Positions 12,970-20,584 of a stretch of DNA of 64,000 nucleotides are shown here, in pieces. The stretch's first letter is position 1. Every line of letters starts with the position of its first letter. The DNA is from Elusimicrobia bacterium GWA2_61_42. GTDB lineage: Bacteria; Elusimicrobiota; Elusimicrobia; Elusimicrobiales; UBA9959. The notes under the pieces are model-generated. The model worked only from the letters and a program-made list of their open reading frames with translations, was not told the origin of the DNA and searched no databases. Position numbers and translations under genes: made by a program. Location: contig MGTU01000011.1 in the NCBI GenBank assembly GCA_001799615.1, positions 23,480-87,479 on the forward strand, in the 5' to 3' direction.

Positions 12970-13629
12970 TCAGTATTTGAAGAATTCAGTCCCGCCCGGG
13001 GCCTGGTGCCTGCAGTCCATTATCAGCAGCCCGTAGTTGGCCGACTGCTGCCCGGAAAAGTAAAGCCAGCCGCCGGAGTCCGTGACGGCTTTGGTGAAAT
13101 CCTTGTCGTATCTGGCGGAGTCTATGACCGTGACCTTGGCCGTAGCCTCGTGCCCCGGCAGGCGCAGCTCCGGCACCGCGTTCATCCTGCCCGGCGTCAG
13201 CCTGGAGGGGTCCGCCGGATATTTGCCGTTGTTGACCACGTAGTAGACCTGCAGCGAAGACCTGAACTCCTGCAGGGTCAGCTTGGCCTCTTCGGCCAGC
13301 GCCGTGTCCGCCAGCTCCTTTTCCCGGCGCGCGGCCTCGGCGAGCAGGTCGCGGCCCAGCGCCGCCTCCAGCTCACCGTTGAACCGGGCGAGTTCCGGCG
13401 CCAGCGCGTCCAGTTTCTCCGGGGGCACCTCGGCCCCGCGTTCCAGCAGCAGCGCCAGGTTCCTGGCGGCCTGGCGCAGTTCCGGGGAATATTTTAACGG
13501 GGCGGGCTCCGGCCTGGCCGCCGCGGCGGGCGGGGCCGTATTCGCTTCCGGGCCGGGGGTTTTAACTTCCTCCTGCGCCGTGGCGGGGGCGGCCGAAAAG
13601 ACCAAAGCGGCTAAGATCAGTTGTTTCAT
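12970..13629 (-). CDS. Secreted protein with pseudopilin-like C-terminal domain
   Basis: Sec signal peptide, Pro-rich linker, then LQEFRSSLQVYY..NNG.YP.D...L and GGWLY. Confidence 0.6.
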   Translation of the reverse strand: MKQLILAALVFSAAPATAQEEVKTPGPEANTAPPAAAARPEPAPLKYSPELRQAARNLALLLERGAEVPPEKLDALAPELARFNGELEAALGRDLLAEAARREKELADTALAEEAKLTLQEFRSSLQVYYVVNNGKYPADPSRLTPGRMNAVPELRLPGHEATAKVTVIDSARYDKDFTKAVTDSGGWLYFSGQQSANYGLLIMDCRHQAPGGTEFFKY

Positions 13630-13636
13630 AGTTTCT

Positions 13637-14395
13637 TCAGGGCTTGATGTCCCAGTTCTCCAGTTCCGGCACGAACTTGTAGTCGGTCAGGTCGAACTGT
13701 ATGGGCGTCACCGAGATATAGCCGGCGCGCAGCGCGTTGAGGTCGCTGGCCCCGTCGGCGTCCTTGGGCTTGAAATCCCCGGTCATCCAGTAGTAGGTGT
13801 TGCCGTGCGGGTCCCGGCGCTTGTCGAACCAGTCGTTGAACGAAGTCCTGCTCTGGTTGGTAATGCGTACGCCCTTTATTTTGGCGGCGGAAATATTAGG
13901 AAGGTTCACGTTCAGCAGCGTCCCCGCCGGCAGCTTTTTCTTTTTCATCATGGCGGCTATCTTCACGGCGAAGGCCGCGGAAGGCCCGAAATCAGGTTTG
14001 GTGAAAGTGTCCAGGGAGACGGCCAGCGAAGGGATGCCCAGCAGCGCGCCTTCGGTGGCGCCCGACACGGTGCCGGAATAAAGGATGTTGTAGCCCTGGT
14101 TGCCGCCCAGGTTGATGCCCGAGACCACCAGGTCCGGTCTTTTCTTCATGATGGACTTGATCCCGAGCTTGACGCAGTCCGCAGGCGTGCCGCTGGCCGC
14201 GTAGCCGAAGAACTTGCCGTTGCGGTTGGCCGTCACTACCCGGAGCGGGTCCGCTATGGTGATGGCGTGCCCGACGGCGCTGCGCTGCGTGTCAGGGGCC
14301 ACCACGGTGACATTGCCGAGCTTTTTAAGCGCGCAGGCCAGGGCGTAAATGCCTTCCGCGTAGATGCCGTCGTCGTTGGTGATCAGTATTTCCAT
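13637..14395 (-). CDS. surE: 5'/3'-nucleotidase SurE
   Basis: ILITNDDGI, GTPADCV, SGINLG.N, YSGTV and SVTPI motifs. Confidence 0.97.
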   Translation of the reverse strand: MEILITNDDGIYAEGIYALACALKKLGNVTVVAPDTQRSAVGHAITIADPLRVVTANRNGKFFGYAASGTPADCVKLGIKSIMKKRPDLVVSGINLGGNQGYNILYSGTVSGATEGALLGIPSLAVSLDTFTKPDFGPSAAFAVKIAAMMKKKKLPAGTLLNVNLPNISAAKIKGVRITNQSRTSFNDWFDKRRDPHGNTYYWMTGDFKPKDADGASDLNALRAGYISVTPIQFDLTDYKFVPELENWDIKP

Positions 14396-14421
14396 GGTCG
14401 CTTTCCTTTATCTGTCGGAAG

Positions 14422-14625
14422 TCATTTGTCTTTGTAGCCGAAGGTTTCCAGCATGCCGTCAACTATCCTGGCGTGCGCTTTTTCCTGGCGCTGCAGCGCC
14501 AGGAAGAATTTTTTAAGCTGCGGGTCGTCCACGGCCTCGGCGTAGGTCCCGAACCGCTCGTGCATGGTGTTCTCCACTTTGCGGATCTGGAGGAAATATT
14601 TTACATAATCTTCTTTAGAAAACAT
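14422..14625 (-). CDS. Small ferritin/rubrerythrin-like half-bundle protein
   Basis: Helix with E18, DPQLKKFF turn, second helix with EKAH (ExxH); 67 aa; 11-nt overlap with upstream gene. Confidence 0.7.
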   Translation of the reverse strand: MFSKEDYVKYFLQIRKVENTMHERFGTYAEAVDDPQLKKFFLALQRQEKAHARIVDGMLETFGYKDK

Positions 14626-14857
14626 TCCGTTCGTCCCCCTCTATCTTCGCCCTTTCCGCCGTAAGCAGCTTCGTGTGCCGTTCGGATTCCTTCTCCAGGA
14701 TGCCCAGCTGGATGCGCAGCTTTTCTCTTTCCGCCGCCGGCAGGCCGCTCCAGAACAGGGCCGTTTTGAGGTGGCGGTTGTAGATGGGGATGGATCGGTC
14801 TTCCAGCGCTATGGCTTCGTCCAGCATTTTTAAAAGAATTTTTTTCTCAACGCCCAT
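14615..14857 (-). CDS. Small ferritin-like half-bundle protein
   Basis: LDEAIALED...IY helix and ESERH helix; 80 aa; 11-nt overlap with GH26 gene. Confidence 0.68.
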   Translation of the reverse strand: MGVEKKILLKMLDEAIALEDRSIPIYNRHLKTALFWSGLPAAEREKLRIQLGILEKESERHTKLLTAERAKIEGDERNVF

Positions 14858-15845
14858 TTTTTTCCTTTTTAAAGAACCAGTCCAGCCCGGCGCCGTCGGA
14901 TGTGAAATGCCGGCTATTCGCGCCGGCTGAATATACGGAGGCGGCCCCGGGGTCCGCCGAAACGCGCCAGTCGCATTCCTTGTCGTAGTCGAACCACATA
15001 AAGCCTTTTACCGCGGTGTAGCGCGATTGGAGCCGGTAGAACAGGCGCCGGACCCATTCCGCCTTGTTCCCGCCCGAAGAACAGGACGCGACTTCCGTAA
15101 GAAAAACCGGTTTGTCCGGCGCCAGCGCCAGCGCCCTGGCGTAAGGGTCCTTCAGCAGCAGGTTGGGCCTGCTCCAGGCAGACCACGCCTGCGTGTCGCC
15201 CCAGTTGTAGATATCGAGTCCCACCGCGTCGGTGTATTCGTCGCCCGGGTAGTAATTCTCGAACCGGTTCCATTTCTCCGCGGGTTTGTCCTCGCCGTTC
15301 ACGCTGAAGACCAGCCGCGCCTTCGGCCCGGCTTCCGCCCTTATTATGCCCGCCATGCGGCGCCAGGCCAGGCGGTACTGCCCGGCGTCGCGCGAGTTTT
15401 TCGCCCCGGCCCAGGCGTACCAGTCGCCGTTGGGCTCGTGGCCCCAGCGGATCAGGACCGGCTTGCGGTAAGCCTTTATGGCCGCCGCCATGCTCCGCAT
15501 ATAGGCGTCGTAGCCTCCGGCGGCGATCTCGCCCAGCAGGCTGCGGTCGGGGTCGCTCTTGAGATAGGGTTCCCAGGTCAGCGCCAGTATCGACGAAGCG
15601 GCCCTCGCGGCTTTGATCTCGGCGGCGGGGAAGCCGTCCCCCCAGGCCAGGTAGAAGGAGATGAACCCCGTCGGCAGGCCCAGGGCCCCGTAATTCTCCG
15701 AAATTATGCCCGCCACGCAGCCGGGCTGCTCCGTCTCGAAGCGGTACGTCCTCTGCCAGGGGAGGCGCAGGTCCTCGCGCAGGGCCCAGAGCAGCACGGC
15801 CGCCGCCGCGAGGCCTAAAGCCAGCGGTATTTTCAGGCGCGCCAT
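14847..15845 (-). CDS. Glycoside hydrolase family 26 with N-terminal anchor/signal
   Basis: LTWEP, G.YD.Y, RWGHEPNGDWY (acid/base), YYPGD...D.VGLD.YN, FLTE (nucleophile), WF; start set at ATG 15845. Confidence 0.88.
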   Translation of the reverse strand: MARLKIPLALGLAAAAVLLWALREDLRLPWQRTYRFETEQPGCVAGIISENYGALGLPTGFISFYLAWGDGFPAAEIKAARAASSILALTWEPYLKSDPDRSLLGEIAAGGYDAYMRSMAAAIKAYRKPVLIRWGHEPNGDWYAWAGAKNSRDAGQYRLAWRRMAGIIRAEAGPKARLVFSVNGEDKPAEKWNRFENYYPGDEYTDAVGLDIYNWGDTQAWSAWSRPNLLLKDPYARALALAPDKPVFLTEVASCSSGGNKAEWVRRLFYRLQSRYTAVKGFMWFDYDKECDWRVSADPGAASVYSAGANSRHFTSDGAGLDWFFKKEKNGR

Positions 15846-17377
15846 TTCGCTTTTTCCTCGCGGCCCAGGACCGGCAGCTGGTTGAAATAGAAAATGTTCC
15901 ACAGGATGAAGAGATGGTACGCGGCCCAGAACATGTTCACGCCCATCGCGTAAGGGGCGGTGCGGAACTTCAGCAGGCCGGTGACCAGGGCCGCGATGTT
16001 AAGCCCCATCATCACGCCGTAAGGCCAAAGGGCCGAAAGCGGCATCACTTCCGCTTTGCCCTTGGTGGTGACCACGAAGGTCATGCGCTTGCCGAACAGA
16101 CCGTACACGGCCGCCTTCATCAGCAGCGGGAAACACAAGGAGCCCAGGATCAGCCCGTAATAGATCTGGCTGAAATTGTAATGCCGCTCCTTCATGGTGG
16201 AGAAAAAGATCAGCAGGGTCAGGCAGAAATACGGGACATAGGCGGTCAGGTAGATGCGCGGGTCGAGGAAGAACGACGGAACGTTGAAAAGCAGGAAGGC
16301 TATCGGGCAGAGCATCAGCAGGAAGAAGGCCCAGCCGACGAAGTAATAGGTGCCGGCCAGCATGTATTCCCACCACTGGATGGGCGAAAGCTTGAAGGGA
16401 TGCCTGAACACGCCGGAGACCAGCTTGCGGAAGACGCTGATGGTGCCGCCGGCCCACCGGGCCTGCTGCTTGAAATAGGCGGGCAGGGTTTCCGGGCCCA
16501 GGCCGAAAGCCACCACGTGGTTGTGGTACCAGGAGCGCCAGCCTTTCATGTGCAGGTTCACGGAGGTGGCGAAATCCTCCGTTATGAACTCTTCCTCGAA
16601 CCCCCCCACGTCCAGCAGCGCCTCTTTGCGGAAGACCACGTTGGTGCCGCAGCAGAACATGGACCCGGTAACGTTCTTTCCCTCGCAGATGGTCTCGTAG
16701 AAGATGGCCTGCTGCATGGCGGAGCCCTTGGCTACCGGGCTTTCGCCGATGTTGGTGTAGAACTGCGGCGTCTGGACGAAGGCCAGCCTTTCATCGCCTT
16801 CCAGCAGCGGGATTATGTCGTTGAGGAAATCCGGCATCGGGTTCTGGTCCGCGTCGAAGATGGCTATATATTTTTCAGGCATGCCCCGCAGGAAGTCGTT
16901 GACGATGCCCGCCTTGGCCCCGTGGCGTTCCGTACGCCTGAAGACCGTGATGCCGTGCGCCAGCGCCAGCGCGTCGGCCTCGTCCTTATAGGACTGGTCG
17001 GAGGAGTCGTCGAGGAAGTAGATGGTCTTGCGGGGATAATCGACGTTGCGGAAGGTGATGATGGTGCTTTCCAGCACTTCTTTCGGCTCGTGCCTGGCCG
17101 CCACCACTATGGCCACCGCGGGTTCTTCTCCGGGCTTAGGCGTCACCCGCCTGGGCGCCGCCCTCGGGGTCGTCAGCGCGAAGGTGTTCATCATGTAGCC
17201 GAAGGCGTGCAACAGCATGTAGCTTTCGCCCGCCAGCAGGAACAGGCCGAACAGCCTCTCCAGGGCGCTGTATTCCGAGTAGGAGAAGATCACCACGCGC
17301 GCCACGAAGTACACGCAGATGGCTATGGCCGCCGCTATCGTGAATATCCGCAGCCTTTTAAGGAAGGCGATCAGCAT
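15833..17377 (-). CDS. Cellulose-synthase-like processive GT2 without PilZ domain
   Basis: LDD, HGAKAG, DAD, VQTPQ.Y, CGT, TED and QQARW motifs; N- and C-terminal TM helices; 514 aa. Confidence 0.9.
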   Translation of the reverse strand: MLIAFLKRLRIFTIAAAIAICVYFVARVVIFSYSEYSALERLFGLFLLAGESYMLLHAFGYMMNTFALTTPRAAPRRVTPKPGEEPAVAIVVAARHEPKEVLESTIITFRNVDYPRKTIYFLDDSSDQSYKDEADALALAHGITVFRRTERHGAKAGIVNDFLRGMPEKYIAIFDADQNPMPDFLNDIIPLLEGDERLAFVQTPQFYTNIGESPVAKGSAMQQAIFYETICEGKNVTGSMFCCGTNVVFRKEALLDVGGFEEEFITEDFATSVNLHMKGWRSWYHNHVVAFGLGPETLPAYFKQQARWAGGTISVFRKLVSGVFRHPFKLSPIQWWEYMLAGTYYFVGWAFFLLMLCPIAFLLFNVPSFFLDPRIYLTAYVPYFCLTLLIFFSTMKERHYNFSQIYYGLILGSLCFPLLMKAAVYGLFGKRMTFVVTTKGKAEVMPLSALWPYGVMMGLNIAALVTGLLKFRTAPYAMGVNMFWAAYHLFILWNIFYFNQLPVLGREEKAKWRA

Positions 17378-18951
17378 CAGAAGGCCTTTACCGCCGACAG
17401 GCTGTAATAATTATCCCTGTAGTAATGGGAGACCGTCAGGGAATAAGCCGCCTGAAAATTCAGGGTGCCGCGCAGCCCGACGTTAAGCAGCAGCGACGGG
17501 TTGAAAGAAAGATAGGGGCTGTTGTCGTAGGCGGCGCGGCACTTCGCCTCGAAATAATCCCCGCGGGCCCCGTAATAGAGCCCGTCCGGCCCGAAATTGA
17601 GCTTGTAGCCCGCGGTCAGCGCGTACAGGTCGTAGGCGGCGGGAGCGAAATAAAGCGCGGAAGTTTTGTCGTAGTTCTGCCGCTCGTAGCGGAATTGGGC
17701 GTAAAGGGCGGAAGGCTCACGCGAGAAATAGTACCGGGCGTCGGCCCCGTAAAGCTCGAGGCCGTTGCCGTCGTTGATATGGCCGGCCCTGTAATCGGCC
17801 CCGGCGGAAAGGCTGCCGTTCGCGTCCCAGTCCAGCCTGCCCTTCAGGGCGTCCAGGTCCAGGTTCCGGGCGAAGACAGCGCGGCTGTTTATGAAATTCT
17901 CCCTGCTGTAAGTGACCGCCCCGGTCAGGTTCTCGCGCAGCTTGCGCCAGTAGAACAGGTTGTAATCCTCCCTGGAGGCGGGCGGACGGTTCAGGCTTTT
18001 GGCCGAGTAGGAAGCTCCGGCCCCGCTGCTGAAAGCCGGCCTGTATTCCAGGGAGAGCCGGCCGGCTTTCTCGTCCAGGGGCGCGGCGCCGGAGAAAGAA
18101 TAGCGGCCGTGCGCCCCCACCAGCGAGAGCAGCAGCGACGGGGAAAGATGTTTTTCCGCGGAGAGAGAGCTGTTCAGGTACTTAACGCCGGTCATGCGGT
18201 CCGCCCCGTCGGCGTTCCACAACGAGACCCCGGCCCTGACGGCGTAGCCGTCGCCGAAGGCCGCGTTCTTTTCACGCGACCTGTTTGCGGCGGTGTTGTA
18301 AGGCGAAACTTCCGCCAGCTTTTTATAGTACTGCTCCGCTTTGGAATAAAGGCCTGAGTTGGAGTAGAACTGTGCCAGGTCGAACAGGGCCTCGGCCTCG
18401 GCCGGCTCCAGCGCGACGGCTTTCTCAAAATGGGCCAGCGCCTGCTCCGGGCGCGCGCCCCGCATCTTTTCCTTGCCGAGTTGTTCTTCCTTTATCCAGT
18501 CCAGGCCGGCCTTGGTGAAAGCCGCGGCGTAGGCCTTGTCCGAGGCCGGGTAGCGCTTGTCCCAGGCCAGCACCCTGGCCTTCTCCAGTTCCGGCTGGTA
18601 GTCCGCCGGTTCAAGGGTTATGGCCTTGTCATAAAAAGCGGCGGAATCGCCGAACCTGTCCTGCCAGCTGTAAAGCCGGGCCAGGGCCAGGGCGGATTCG
18701 TAATCTGAAGGATCGGTTTTAAGGGCGGAGAGGGCGGAGGCTTCGGCCTCGCCGAATTTACCCAAGGAGATCAGGATTCGGGTTTCCAGGCGTACGCAGG
18801 GCTGGTCTTTGGGCCCGTCGGCGACGGGCAGGGCTTTTTCTGCTTCGGCGGGGTTGCCCGAGTTGAAGAACTGTTCGGCTTCCGCGCAGGTAGCGCTGGC
18901 CGTTCCATGCGCGGCCAGCGGCAGCAGCAGTATAAATAAGGCTTTACGCAT
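17377..18951 (-). CDS. TPR-repeat plus outer-membrane beta-barrel protein (BcsC/PgaA-like architecture)
   Basis: Signal peptide; TPRs with LARLYSW and ARVLAW; alternating beta-strand C-terminal half ending in Phe. Confidence 0.78.
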   Translation of the reverse strand: MRKALFILLLPLAAHGTASATCAEAEQFFNSGNPAEAEKALPVADGPKDQPCVRLETRILISLGKFGEAEASALSALKTDPSDYESALALARLYSWQDRFGDSAAFYDKAITLEPADYQPELEKARVLAWDKRYPASDKAYAAAFTKAGLDWIKEEQLGKEKMRGARPEQALAHFEKAVALEPAEAEALFDLAQFYSNSGLYSKAEQYYKKLAEVSPYNTAANRSREKNAAFGDGYAVRAGVSLWNADGADRMTGVKYLNSSLSAEKHLSPSLLLSLVGAHGRYSFSGAAPLDEKAGRLSLEYRPAFSSGAGASYSAKSLNRPPASREDYNLFYWRKLRENLTGAVTYSRENFINSRAVFARNLDLDALKGRLDWDANGSLSAGADYRAGHINDGNGLELYGADARYYFSREPSALYAQFRYERQNYDKTSALYFAPAAYDLYALTAGYKLNFGPDGLYYGARGDYFEAKCRAAYDNSPYLSFNPSLLLNVGLRGTLNFQAAYSLTVSHYYRDNYYSLSAVKAF

Positions 18952-18992
18952 TAAATATCCCCTTAGTACCGGGCGTACACCCCAATGTGATT

Positions 18993-19025
18993 AAAAAGAA
19001 AAGCGGCTTTCAAACGTAAGCCGCT
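18993..19025 (-). terminator. Intrinsic terminator after tRNA-His
   Basis: AGCGGCTT-8 nt-AAGCCGCT hairpin followed by TTTCTTTTT on the minus strand. Confidence 0.8.
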
Positions 19026-19037
19026 GGGAGTCAAATT

Positions 19038-19114
19038 TGGGGTGGCTGAGGGGACTTGAACCCCCGACCTCTCGGGCCACAGCCGAGCGCTCTAACCACT
19101 GAGCTACAACCACC
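19038..19114 (-). tRNA. tRNA-His (GTG)
   Basis: GGTGGTTGTAGCTCAGTGGTTAGAGC...CTGTGGC...GGTTCAAGTCC...CAGCCACCCCA; G-1:C73 pair; CCA encoded. Confidence 0.97.
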
Positions 19115-19165
19115 GTATGACTATTATATATAAAACAAATGTATAATGAAAATCACGGAGGGCTT

Positions 19166-20584
19166 ATGATAAGAAAACCTGCTGTAGCCGGACGCTTTTA
19201 CGACGCGGACCCGGAGGCGCTGCGCGCCGCGGTGCTGCGTTTCCTTAAACCGGCGAACCGTCCCCTGGGCGAGGTAAAGGGGTTTCTGGCCCCTCACGCC
19301 GGCTATACCTACTCCGGCCCCGCCGCCGGCTCCGCTTTCGCCTCCGTAAAGGACCTGGACTTTGACACGCTGGTGATAATGGCCACCGGCCACACCATGC
19401 CGCTGCGCAAAGGCGCGCTGCTGGCCTCCGGCTCGTTCGAGACCCCGCTGGGCCGGGTGGAGATAGACGCCGCGTTCTGCGCCGAGCTCCTGAAGGAAAA
19501 AAAACTTTTCGAGGACCTGCCGGCCGCCCACGAGGAGGAGCACGCCGTGGAAGTGCAGCTGCCCTTCCTGCAGGCCGTAAAAGGCTCCGCCGTAAAGATC
19601 GTCCCCATACTTTTTAACTGCGAGGACACCGCCCTGCTCGAAAAGGCCGGGCGCGCCGTGGGCCGGGCCCTGAAAGGGCGCCGGGCGCTGTTCTGCGTTT
19701 CCTCCGACCTCAGCCATTATCCCCCCGGCGACGTCGCCGAAATGTCGGACCGCTCGGTGCTGCTGGCCCTGCGGCAGGCCATGCGCAATGCCAGCCCGGA
19801 GTATTTCACGCTGGCCAACCGCCTGCTGCTGGCCAAGGCCGCGGGCTCCCTGGATACCACGGCCTGCGGGCAGGCGGCCATGACCGCCGGCGCCGCGGCA
19901 GCGCTGGAACTGGGCTGCAACGATTTCGAACTGGGGCTTTACACCCACTCGGGCAAGGTCTCCGGCGACGAGACGGCCGTGGTGGGCTACGGCGCGGGTT
20001 TCTTCACCAAGGTTTCCCCCAAGCCTTCCGGCGCGCCCGGCTTGGACGGCAGGATGCAGGAGGAACTGCTGGCGCTGGCGCGCTTCAGCATAGGGGGCTG
20101 CCTGAAAACCGGGAAAACGCCTAGCCAGCCTTTGAGCTTCAGGCCGGAATTCAACCAGCCGGCCGCCGTGTTCGTGACCCTTACCAGCGGCGGCGCGCTG
20201 CGCGGCTGCATCGGCAGCCTGGAGCCGCGCGGGACGCTGGCCGACATGGTCGGTGCTTACGCCGGCGCGGCGGCTTTCGAGGACCCCCGGTTCGAGCCTG
20301 TCACGGCGGCGGACCTGAAAAAACTGAAGATCGAGATCTCGGTGCTTTCCCCCCTGGAACGGGTTTCCGGCCCGGAGGCGGTGAAAGCCGGGGTGCACGG
20401 GGTCTATGTTAAAAACGGCGGCCGCTCGGGCACCTACCTGCCGCAGGTCTGGGAGCATTTCACTGACAAAGAGGAGTTCCTGTCCTCCCTCTGCGCCGAG
20501 AAGGCCGGGCTGGCCGCCGGCGCCTGGAAAGACCAGGCTACCGAGTTATATACCTATACGGTATCTTCTTTCACCGAGAAATAA
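19166..20584 (+). CDS. AmmeMemoRadiSam protein B (Memo-like) fused to protein A (AMMECR1)
   Basis: RKPAVAGRFY, PHAGY.YSG, EHAVEVQLPFL, SSDLSHY, VVGY; then FVTL....LRGCIG, DPRF, EISVLSP, LPQVW; SD GGAG. Confidence 0.92.
   Translation: MIRKPAVAGRFYDADPEALRAAVLRFLKPANRPLGEVKGFLAPHAGYTYSGPAAGSAFASVKDLDFDTLVIMATGHTMPLRKGALLASGSFETPLGRVEIDAAFCAELLKEKKLFEDLPAAHEEEHAVEVQLPFLQAVKGSAVKIVPILFNCEDTALLEKAGRAVGRALKGRRALFCVSSDLSHYPPGDVAEMSDRSVLLALRQAMRNASPEYFTLANRLLLAKAAGSLDTTACGQAAMTAGAAAALELGCNDFELGLYTHSGKVSGDETAVVGYGAGFFTKVSPKPSGAPGLDGRMQEELLALARFSIGGCLKTGKTPSQPLSFRPEFNQPAAVFVTLTSGGALRGCIGSLEPRGTLADMVGAYAGAAAFEDPRFEPVTAADLKKLKIEISVLSPLERVSGPEAVKAGVHGVYVKNGGRSGTYLPQVWEHFTDKEEFLSSLCAEKAGLAAGAWKDQATELYTYTVSSFTEK

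Follow-up and report, generated by a model that had tools for sequence, protein, structure and literature searches.

Synthase-dependent secretion, as it is known for cellulose, poly-N-acetylglucosamine (PNAG), Pel and alginate, is a textbook route to the biofilm matrix. To our knowledge, every well-studied case is switched on by cyclic di-GMP (c-di-GMP), through a receptor that is either built into the synthase or bound to it. The cellulose synthase BcsA has such a receptor, a PilZ domain, in its own chain; in alginate synthesis the PilZ domain stands on a separate protein, Alg44, a membrane protein with a periplasmic domain, and it activates the synthase Alg8. Here we describe a locus in a 64,000-nucleotide stretch of DNA (“the window”) from the groundwater genome of Elusimicrobia bacterium GWA2_61_42 (assembly GCA_001799615.1, contig MGTU01000011.1, positions 23,480 to 87,479), where five minus-strand genes encode a porin with tetratricopeptide repeats (TPR), a family 2 glycosyltransferase (GT2, the synthase), a glycoside hydrolase of family 26 (GH26) and two small proteins of 80 and 67 residues. 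We refer to the last two as fer80 and fer67 and to both together as the small pair (Table 1).

On balance, we favor the interpretation that this locus is a compact system, synthase-dependent and Bcs-like, for the production and export of a beta-glucan, and that the small pair is its synthase-bound signal-input subunit. An initial annotation of the same DNA had proposed a synthase-dependent exopolysaccharide system, and this proposal is borne out by the co-occurrence of the genes over genomes and phyla.

We found no published description of a synthase-linked fer pair in the literature on cellulose synthases, PilZ domains and ferritin-like or rubrerythrin proteins, and nothing on this system in the literature on cellulose synthases of Elusimicrobia or Omnitrophota, among the papers listed. 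A search that combined GH26, cellulose synthase and TPR exopolysaccharide systems gave none with GH26 among the matches listed. For a pair of ferritin-like hairpins as the carrier of PilZ we found no precedent; PilZ acting in trans is itself preceded by Alg44. A PilZ survey (10.1101/814665) makes no mention of ferritin, rubrerythrin or four-helix, and a term search did not find the word “ferritin” in a review of Bcs systems (PMC8892547). Passages of PMC10374906 describe two BcsA-like synthases: RiGT2 of Romboutsia ilealis, which works without BcsB and keeps a PilZ-like domain, and BgsA of Sinorhizobium meliloti, which makes a mixed-linkage beta-glucan and has no canonical PilZ domain. The supplementary data of PMC10374906 may include phylogenies of synthases that are relevant to the clade described below.

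Comparison with described systems

The closest likeness is to Bcs. The window synthase has the BcsA fold, all of the processive motifs and the gating-loop motif; an endoglucanase gene lies in the operon; the TPR porin ends in a 16-strand barrel and best matches BcsC; and BcsG occurs in some related loci. In contrast to Bcs, no BcsB was found in the genome and there is no PilZ domain on the synthase, which has two N-terminal helices before its GT domain and belongs to a clade separate from that of BcsA. The hydrolase is a GH26 enzyme rather than the GH8 enzyme BcsZ, the TPR domain takes up only about 210 residues of a 524-residue protein whereas the BcsC profile has 1157 positions, and the operon adds a two-gene ferritin-like module. 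In its workings the system resembles a Bcs machine, yet three Bcs features are missing from it, namely PilZ on the synthase, BcsB and GH8.

Alg8-Alg44 offers a second parallel, as the Omnitrophota homologues of our locus supply a c-di-GMP receptor domain in trans on a partner protein. Unlike in Alg44, however, PilZ is carried there by a small helical hairpin in the cytosol that is paired with a second one, and the copy in the window has no PilZ domain. The lichenase-like GH26 of the window would also fit a mixed-linkage product such as that of the BgsBA system. On the other hand, BgsA (locus L051 in our set) is paired with the HlyD-type protein BgsB, has about 200 residues after its gating loop, and falls in our tree among HlyD-linked synthases adjacent to BcsA, away from the window clade. 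Pfam detected no HlyD gene in the window locus.

As a two-helix hairpin with a Glu and an ExxH motif, fer67 resembles EncFtn/EncB, symerythrin and the “Due Ferri” proteins. Half-ferritin hairpins build a di-iron site at their dimer interface. Here, in contrast, the tandem genes encode two hairpins that differ from each other, and the motif of fer80 is non-canonical; moreover, the pair is tied to a polysaccharide synthase, fer67 is often fused to PilZ, and there is no encapsulin or iron-storage context. Lastly, PgaA and PelB share with the window porin an arrangement of TPR repeats followed by a 16-strand barrel, but the window locus has neither a PgaB/PelA-type deacetylase nor a PelC partner.

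The synthase

Pfam assigned the synthase to GT2 families, with an additional weak match to Cellulose_synt. The top NCBIfam model was CelA (TIGR03030), which scored 217 bits (cut-off 699) over profile positions 58-556 of 714, so that the match stops before the C-terminal region of the model. By sequence, the closest solved relatives were BcsA of R. sphaeroides and E. coli (best 5.7e-38). The processive motif set that had been read in the translation (DD, HGAKAG, DAD, QTPQ, TED and QQARW) is complete, and no variation was seen among 22 members of the family in DDS, HGAKAG, DxD, QTPQ, CCGTN, TED, QQxRW or the FxxTxK loop. An AlphaFold2 model with a mean confidence (pLDDT) of 84.4 shows two N-terminal helices, a GT-A domain, and interface and transmembrane helices. 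Its best fold matches were BcsA structures (9b8v_E, TM-score by query 0.80; 4p00_A, 0.78), and the next were plant CesA and hyaluronan synthases.

The absence of PilZ and BcsB, two further claims of the initial annotation, held up. Pfam gave no PilZ match (PF07238) on the window synthase; only 80 residues follow the FxVTxK loop, compared to 189-250 in seven BcsA/BgsA-type references; and the C-terminus of the model is a short helix after the transmembrane helices. BcsB is missing from the operon, and its profile (PF03170) had no match anywhere in the host genome, an assembly of 2.95 Mb that is 94.8% complete and in which the window lies on contig 11; the same search was positive in an E. coli control. 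There was thus no sign of a BcsB encoded elsewhere. BcsG (PF11658) and GH8 (PF01270) likewise gave no match in this 94.8%-complete genome, and with these negative profile searches we rejected the possibility that BcsB, BcsG or GH8 is supplied from another part of the genome. Two PilZ genes were found in the host genome, both on contigs other than that of the window, along with six GGDEF matches.

We placed the synthase in a rapid maximum-likelihood tree with 36 rows, made up of 27 family members, two paralogues from related Elusimicrobia genomes, two BcsA, BgsA, three HlyD-linked plasmid synthases, and PgaC as the outgroup. The family formed a starred clade of its own (99) that has a long stem and is separate from the group of BcsA and BgsA. 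Since the tree carries a long-branch warning, we take it only to place the family inside neither BcsA nor BgsA.

The family is large, with 1614 proteins at E <= 1e-20 among the 8000 candidates scored, and a precomputed PilZ domain was present on none of the 120 family matches listed. Taxa named among the matches listed include Omnitrophota, Latescibacterota, Fibrobacteres and Parcubacteria. Its members come for the most part from uncultivated phyla, among them Omnitrophota and Elusimicrobiota.

Some relatives of the synthase differ in length. In a subgroup of about 605-615 residues (proteins P0164, P0192, P0225 and others; examples by coordinate are L060:7719-9551, L073:2172-3992 and L080:4068-5882) the chain has a beta-rich C-terminal extension of about 100 residues. 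This extension may be a degenerate PilZ domain. A hidden PilZ proper was rejected, as Pfam gave no PilZ match in three synthases of about 610 residues or in that of locus L029, and a motif scan of 13 C-terminal tails did not find RxxxR followed by [DN]xSxxG. Two fer pairs accompany the long synthase in L060 and L080, one after the synthase and one farther downstream behind GH26; in L060 a PAS histidine kinase stands between the two pairs. Two relatives of the window organism, at loci L009 (G026) and L010 (G007), have longer BcsA-like paralogues of 655 and 765 residues, which the tree places with canonical BcsA, so that the lineage of the window contains both types of synthase.

Conservation of the cassette across phyla

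Used as a query against species-representative genomes, the GT2 sequence gave 19 loci, whose neighboring genes were identified by tblastn and by reading of open reading frames (ORFs). The loci belong to Elusimicrobia, one Omnitrophota, two Spirochaetes, one Sedimentisphaerales and one Ectothiorhodospiraceae. Downstream of GT2, fer80 and fer67 were present in 16 of the 19; contig ends truncate two of the others, and the remaining one, L029 from Ectothiorhodospiraceae, is without the pair. GH26 was found in 15 of the 19 loci and a TPR-barrel gene upstream of GT2 in 8.

Among 401 sampled Elusimicrobiota genomes, the fer80 profile gave nine strong matches (E <= 2.3e-29) and one spurious weak match. 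In all nine genomes fer80 lies beside fer67 and downstream of GT2. Only 4 of 24 other genomes of the window's genus have a GT2 orthologue (67-78% identity), which makes the cassette patchy.

The same linkage was observed in Omnitrophota. The GT2 family (E <= 1e-60) is present in 27 of 301 sampled genomes, every one of which also has fer80. In 26 of these the two genes share a contig and a strand, and fer80 follows the GT2 match at a distance of 17-1249 bp; in the 27th the locus is split over two contig ends. We scanned the ORFs of these 26 loci with profiles built in this analysis. The hydrolase was GH26 in 21 loci and GH8 (by Pfam) in the same slot in three, and two had neither. A TPR-barrel gene precedes GT2 in L058 to L061, where the stretch reached upstream. 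Metagenome contigs that were found via fer80 had an adjoining fer67 in 4/4 cases, and GT2 in 3/3 of those that reach upstream. In the Spirochaetota sample there were only the centre genome and 3 weak matches among 401, which added nothing on linkage.

The conservation in other phyla excludes chance as the cause of the cassette. The five-gene layout is an inter-phylum cassette, and its invariant core is the synthase with the small pair. The initial annotation had staked its proposal on finding this neighborhood elsewhere, and it is present in other genomes and phyla.

A few loci have additional or missing parts. The two Spirochaetes loci have no hydrolase, and a protein of about 270 residues with an NTP_transf_2 (nucleotidyltransferase) domain follows fer67 (L026:9740-10546 and L027:2295-3113). 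In two Omnitrophota operons fer67 is followed by a full-length ferritin (PF00210; L076:1280-1771) and by a response-regulator receiver protein (L073:1351-1734), respectively. An ORF after GH26 in L029 that looked PilZ-like by eye had no Pfam match. A single in-frame stop (TAG and TAA) interrupts two Omnitrophota GT2 matches (G1026:C4:84634-86145 and G985:C20:28408-29862), and in L075 (755-1676) GH26 is split into ORFs of 51 and 247 residues. These cases may be assembly errors, pseudogenes or recoding.

The small pair and its PilZ fusions

In the window, fer67 has a marginal match to the Pfam family Rubrerythrin (6.4e-5; 23.8 bits compared to a cut-off of 22.8), and 9 of 15 homologues match it also. 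Its profile matched EncB (1.2e-6), symerythrin (4e-5) and designed di-iron bundles. Residue E18 and the motif E48xxH51 are invariant in the 15 homologues. In fer80, the residues E19, Y26, H29, S37 and H61 are invariant in 14 homologues. The fer80 family comprises 481 clusters at 50% identity (E <= 1e-3), the 150 best of which are all free-standing proteins of 63-102 residues, and look-alikes in the atlas are hypothetical proteins of 79-81 residues from Omnitrophota and Planctomycetota.

Several Omnitrophota homologues of fer67 are longer (159-178 residues) and continue into a domain with the motifs RxxxR and [DN]xSxxG. In L058 and L061, both inside GT2 operons, PF07238 scored above its cut-off on fer67, as it did in three fer pairs that do not adjoin GT2. 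With a profile of the tail built here, we found a fer67-PilZ fusion in 13 of the 26 Omnitrophota GT2 operons, and all 13 fusions have both c-di-GMP motifs. The fer67 proteins of the other 13 operons are short as in the window (11), 163 residues long and without a PilZ signal (one) or cut by a contig end (one). The PilZ domain that is missing from the synthase family is thus, in many operons, attached to fer67.

In every Elusimicrobia locus examined fer67 is without PilZ. The window copy ends at 67 residues, and the window operon contains no PilZ beta-barrel and no RxxxR/[DN]xSxxG motifs. The PilZ-bearing fer67 of L061 found no match in the host genome, in a search so insensitive that it missed the window's own fer67 likewise.

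It had been suggested that a metal/redox module possibly controls the synthase instead of c-di-GMP. The module is indeed tied to the synthase, but the PilZ fusions in half of the Omnitrophota operons do not bear out the second part of this suggestion. Judged from its sequences, the small pair appears to be a signal-input subunit that is able to carry c-di-GMP sensing and whose window version has no PilZ domain.

Predicted docking of the small pair on the synthase

We predicted a complex of three chains in which GT2 was scored against fer80 and fer67 jointly, with our own alignments and three controls. The score was 0.83 (0.81, 0.84 and 0.83 in the individual runs), compared to 0.05 for the best control. 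Contacts agreed between runs at 88% or more, and the pLDDT of the partners was at least 80. In calibration this mark was attained by 58 of the 80 solved complexes and by 2 of the 110 mismatched pairs, counts that are rough here given our own alignments and the three chains. We know of no solved complex that resembles GT2 with fer80 and fer67.

The predicted contacts with GT2 lie in residues 17-38 of fer80 and 1-17 of fer67. The contact residues are invariant residues that are not candidate ligands (Y26, H29 and W36-G38 of fer80; M1, F2, D6 and Y10 of fer67), and the putative metal ligands of the pair are outside the predicted interface. On the GT2 side, contacts fall in residues 179-183, 204-210, 224-228, 286-292 and 398-404, which make up patches close to the DAD and QTPQ motifs, together with a loop in the cytosol. 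Contact residues there are kept in the family (N179 in 24/27, P182 in 26/27 and H287 in 25/27 members; E228, F291, R398 and Y400 in 27/27), and the contact positions that the family conserves differ from those of BcsA and BgsA. H29 of fer80, which is among the tightest contacts, occurs in 10/10 copies linked to GT2 and in 0/8 unlinked copies. The predicted contacts are consistent with the conservation pattern of both the pair and GT2. Together with the PilZ fusions, the predicted docking suggests that the small pair is most likely a synthase-bound regulatory subunit.

One possibility is that the pair is bound to the synthase and senses nothing. It would then be an obligatory structural or co-catalytic subunit of a synthase that has no BcsB, required for folding, stability or activity in the way that BcsA depends on its BcsB anchor, its Glu and His residues would be the relic of a ferritin-like ancestor, and PilZ would merely be tethered via the pair in some lineages. 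A docking score so far above that of the best control is what such a subunit would give; the near-universal adjacency of the pair to GT2, the absence of BcsB from the genome, the lack of a canonical ExxH motif in fer80, and the lack of PilZ in 11 of the 26 Omnitrophota loci and in all Elusimicrobia loci examined would fit it as well. However, E18 and E48xxH51 of fer67 are invariant although they lie outside the predicted interface, which suggests selection on a buried site, and L029 has a synthase without the pair. We consider a purely structural or co-catalytic role unlikely and retain a signal-input role for the synthase-bound pair.

The hydrolase and the identity of the polymer

The GH26 domain was well supported by Pfam (4.8e-11; 43 bits compared to a cut-off of 20.2), and the N-terminus of the protein is hydrophobic (MARLKIPLALGLAAAAVLLWAL). 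Among solved structures, the best match was to the GH26 domain of Endoglucanase H from C. thermocellum (1e-39), which we take to be the lichenase CtLic26A. Mannanases matched at 3.8e-7 or weaker and a beta-1,3-xylanase at 4e-4. The HE(P)NG and TE(V) motifs of the window enzyme align with those of the solved C. thermocellum enzyme, and the catalytic Glu residues are kept among its relatives (acid/base in 81/85, nucleophile in 84/85). By these comparisons the protein would be a membrane-anchored periplasmic endo-beta-glucanase of the lichenase-like branch and a functional counterpart of BcsZ.

In five homologous loci the hydrolase slot is occupied by GH8; in the 19-locus scan, GH8 directly follows GT2 in the Omnitrophota and Sedimentisphaerales loci. 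BcsG, the phosphoethanolamine transferase of cellulose, is translationally coupled to GH26 in three of three Elusimicrobia loci tested (PF11658, E 1e-98 to 1e-115). In these loci GH26 and BcsG lie together on the strand opposite to GT2, fer80 and fer67, whose order is kept (L012:5156-7857, L017:10835-13404 and L019:5215-7754). This GH26 is of a second type, with about 41% identity to that of the window.

A lichenase-like GH26, GH8 in the same slot and BcsG in some operons together indicate that the polymer is probably a beta-glucan, cellulose-like or mixed-linkage, and not a mannan or xylan. The earlier proposal of a “non-cellulose” polymer is not supported by these same three observations. 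A polymer with beta-1,4-glucosyl links is most likely. We give a cellulose-like polymer about an even chance, because the nearest fold is that of BcsA, GH8 and GH26 alternate, and BcsG occurs in relatives. A mixed-linkage 1,3;1,4-glucan is a real but lesser possibility, which arises because the GH26 falls in the lichenase branch, and a polymer other than these two is decidedly unlikely.

It could be argued that the machine exports a non-glucan beta-glycan, for example a beta-1,4-mannan or a beta-1,3-xylan, that would fit a typical GH26. Most characterized GH26 enzymes are mannanases, according to passages of PMC6556568 and PMC13390465, and the position of the GT2 clade outside BcsA and BgsA means that phylogeny leaves the sugar unfixed. 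The matches of this particular GH26 argue in the opposite direction, as they are far stronger to the lichenase-type enzyme than to mannanases or the beta-1,3-xylanase. GH8 in the same slot of five loci and BcsG coupled to GH26 in three also point away from such a product, and the top matches of the synthase in both sequence and fold are cellulose synthases. A non-glucan product is therefore very improbable, and a beta-glucan is the product that we assume below.

The outer-membrane porin

Pfam recognized only TPR in the 524-residue porin protein. An AlphaFold2 model based on a 19-sequence alignment (pLDDT 89.9; predicted TM-score 0.82) has 14 helices followed by 16 strands (Table 1). Its best Foldseek matches in the PDB were BcsC of E. 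coli (9b8a, 7.6e-14), PelBC (9h80_M, 1e-12) and a second BcsC structure (6tzk, 4.9e-11), and the PgaA barrel (4y25) matched at 6.6e-11, with a TM-score by target of 0.75 and a root-mean-square deviation of 3.9 over 305 columns. Sequence models of PgaA and BcsC covered the TPR part alone, with scores far under their cut-offs. The proposal that the C-terminus folds as a barrel is thus upheld: it models as a 16-strand barrel, with BcsC, PelB and PgaA as the top matches.

The barrel is not a universal component, however, and the description of the locus as a minimal five-gene unit does not apply to five related Elusimicrobia genomes, in which the synthase and the small pair are present and no TPR-barrel was found. 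One possibility was that these genomes encode the barrel elsewhere. This was rejected, as only matches to the TPR region were obtained and none was full-length.

The five barrel-less loci carry a conserved secreted protein of about 270 residues that belongs to no Pfam family. Proteins of about 250-270 residues with a signal-peptide-like N-terminus were located at L015:10952-11764, L017:10019-10831, L019:4433-5221 and L011:2480-3229, and tblastn gave further matches in L008, L012, L014, L016, L018, L030, L034 and L036. In L011 the gene is directly upstream of GT2, the place of the barrel gene in the window. The window itself has no homologue of this protein, which could be an alternative outer-membrane component.

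Proposed mechanism and points against it

In the mechanism that we propose, GT2 would polymerize UDP-glucose into a beta-glucan and thread the chain across the inner membrane without BcsB, the anchored GH26 would trim or release chains in the periplasm, and the short TPR domain with its 16-strand barrel would conduct the polymer out through the outer membrane. We infer that fer80 and fer67 form a ferritin-like four-helix heterodimer whose outer face docks on the cytosolic GT domain beside the DAD and QTPQ motifs. There the pair would set the activity of the synthase, as a signal input or gate, a task that in BcsA falls to the PilZ domain of the synthase itself. In operons with a PilZ-bearing fer67, c-di-GMP would be the input, delivered in trans. 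In the PilZ-less window operon, the sole candidate sensor would be a buried site of the di-metal type, with E18, E48 and H51 of fer67 and E19 and H61 of fer80 as candidate ligands. The window pair might then respond to iron, oxygen or peroxide, or it might be a constitutive activating subunit.

In a more specific version of this mechanism, the pair would be a synthase-bound sensor of a new class, a di-iron four-helix bundle split over two different chains, through which oxygen, peroxide or iron would gate the BcsB-independent beta-glucan synthase. The bundle would act alone in Elusimicrobia, the window included, and together with c-di-GMP via the fused PilZ in Omnitrophota. We regard this version as tentative and rather doubtful. 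If it were true, matrix secretion in mostly anaerobic, uncultivated phyla would be wired directly to redox or iron status, and the built-in PilZ of BcsA would be one of several interchangeable input modules for the synthase fold.

Several points weigh against our interpretation. Binding, metal content, regulation and polymer are all predictions from computation. The ferritin status of fer80 is weak: no Pfam family matched it, its helix-B motif is [DE]57xxxH61 rather than ExxH, its match to EncC reached only 0.087, and a profile comparison of fer80 with fer67 (hhalign) gave a probability of 3%. Of the “two half-ferritins” of the initial annotation, fer67 therefore stands, on its Rubrerythrin match, and fer80 is tentative. 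The complex prediction scored GT2 against both small chains together. In L029, GT2 and GH26 are present and fer80 was not found in the genome; its synthase nevertheless keeps the predicted contact residues, which weakens the specificity argument for docking. The loosening of the interface that might be expected in this fer-less locus was not seen and gives no help to the docking model. The TPR-barrel was not found in five related genomes, as described above. Upstream of the operon, consensus scans recognized no promoter in the 50 nucleotides before ATG 18951, and a terminator-like hairpin ends about 50 nucleotides before the first operon gene, so that transcription may rely on read-through from the tRNA gene or on a promoter of an unrecognized type. 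Finally, weaker fer80-like matches occur without GT2 in 53 of the 301 Omnitrophota genomes.

We opened eight of these synthase-less Omnitrophota loci. Their neighbors include a thioredoxin-reductase-like flavoprotein in three (Pyr_redox_2; L064, L068 and L069), a radical SAM protein in two (L066 and L067), PPDK_N in one (L062) and a metal-resistance protein in one (L063), and some of the fer67-like proteins carry PilZ here too. The synthase-less fer80-like/fer67-like pairs are a wider, undescribed two-gene module. Their position beside redox and other genes makes an autonomous redox function plausible for the pair family, and redox chemistry may well be its ancestral job.

It could be speculated that the synthase-linked pair has kept such a job, as a split mini-rubrerythrin with a di-iron center that acts in redox reactions or detoxifies peroxide, is co-transcribed with the synthase under stress and makes no contact with it. 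Besides the paralogous pairs next to flavoproteins, the profile matches of fer67 to EncB, symerythrin and designed di-iron bundles, and the true ferritin after fer67 in L076, would be consistent with this idea. It does not explain why the pair adjoins the synthase on the same strand over at least four phyla, even though hydrolase and porin change, why PilZ is fused to fer67 inside the operon, or why H29 and other surface residues are specific to synthase-linked copies; in addition, the complex prediction passes with clean controls. An autonomous role is thus quite improbable for the window pair, and a synthase-bound signal-input subunit remains the interpretation that we prefer.

By that interpretation, the cassette would be a further type of synthase-dependent system, with no BcsB, a minimal BcsC-like porin, a GH26 or GH8 hydrolase, and a separate two-protein helical module that has PilZ in some lineages and metal-type ligands only in others. 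Since the synthase family is large and mainly found in uncultivated phyla, the cassette may be a common matrix route of groundwater and sediment bacteria. As the operon exists with and without PilZ, it amounts to a natural experiment on how a processive synthase exchanges its input domains. Structural and biotechnological studies could also make use of its small beta-glucan synthase, which is independent of BcsB.

Organization of the locus and its flanks

The initial annotation described five overlapping minus-strand genes, and these are present as ORFs at the positions in Table 1. For GH26, the ORF listing starts at GTG 15902 (351 residues); the recorded protein, P0025, is the 332-residue form (100% identity). 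With the ATG start at 15845, the four junctions are as annotated, at 17377, 15833-15845, 14847-14857 and 14615-14625, which corresponds to overlaps of 1, 13, 11 and 11 nucleotides. On the downstream side, surE follows fer67 at a distance of 26 nucleotides.

Table 1. Features of the locus and its upstream flank (window positions)
Feature	Position	Strand	Size	Evidence or remark
TPR + barrel porin gene	17377-18951	minus	524 aa	ORF and translation
Porin domains				signal peptide; TPR, residues ~22-234; 16-strand beta-barrel, residues 236-523
GT2 synthase gene	15833-17377	minus	514 aa	ORF and translation
GH26 gene	14847-15845	minus	332 aa from ATG 15845	Pfam GH26
fer80 gene	14615-14857	minus	80 aa	ORF; cytosolic helical protein
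fer67 gene	14422-14625	minus	67 aa	Pfam Rubrerythrin; half-ferritin-like
Terminator-like hairpin after tRNA-His	19025-19002	minus		consensus scan
tRNA-His(GTG)	19038-19113	minus		Rfam tRNA, 68.3 bits; ARAGORN; directly upstream of operon
Promoter-like site of tRNA-His	19152-19123	minus		consensus scan
Fused Memo-like + AMMECR1 protein	19139-20584	plus	481 aa	divergent, true upstream neighbor of operon

An Rfam scan of positions 13000-20000 (E <= 1) found no known leader RNA or c-di-GMP riboswitch and gave tRNA-His alone, which rules out such a riboswitch in the operon leader at this threshold. The tRNA-His gene, with promoter-like and terminator-like sites of its own, sits between the gene for the Memo-AMMECR1 fusion and the operon. 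A minus-strand ORF of 444 residues that overlies the Memo-AMMECR1 DNA belongs to no family and is probably spurious.

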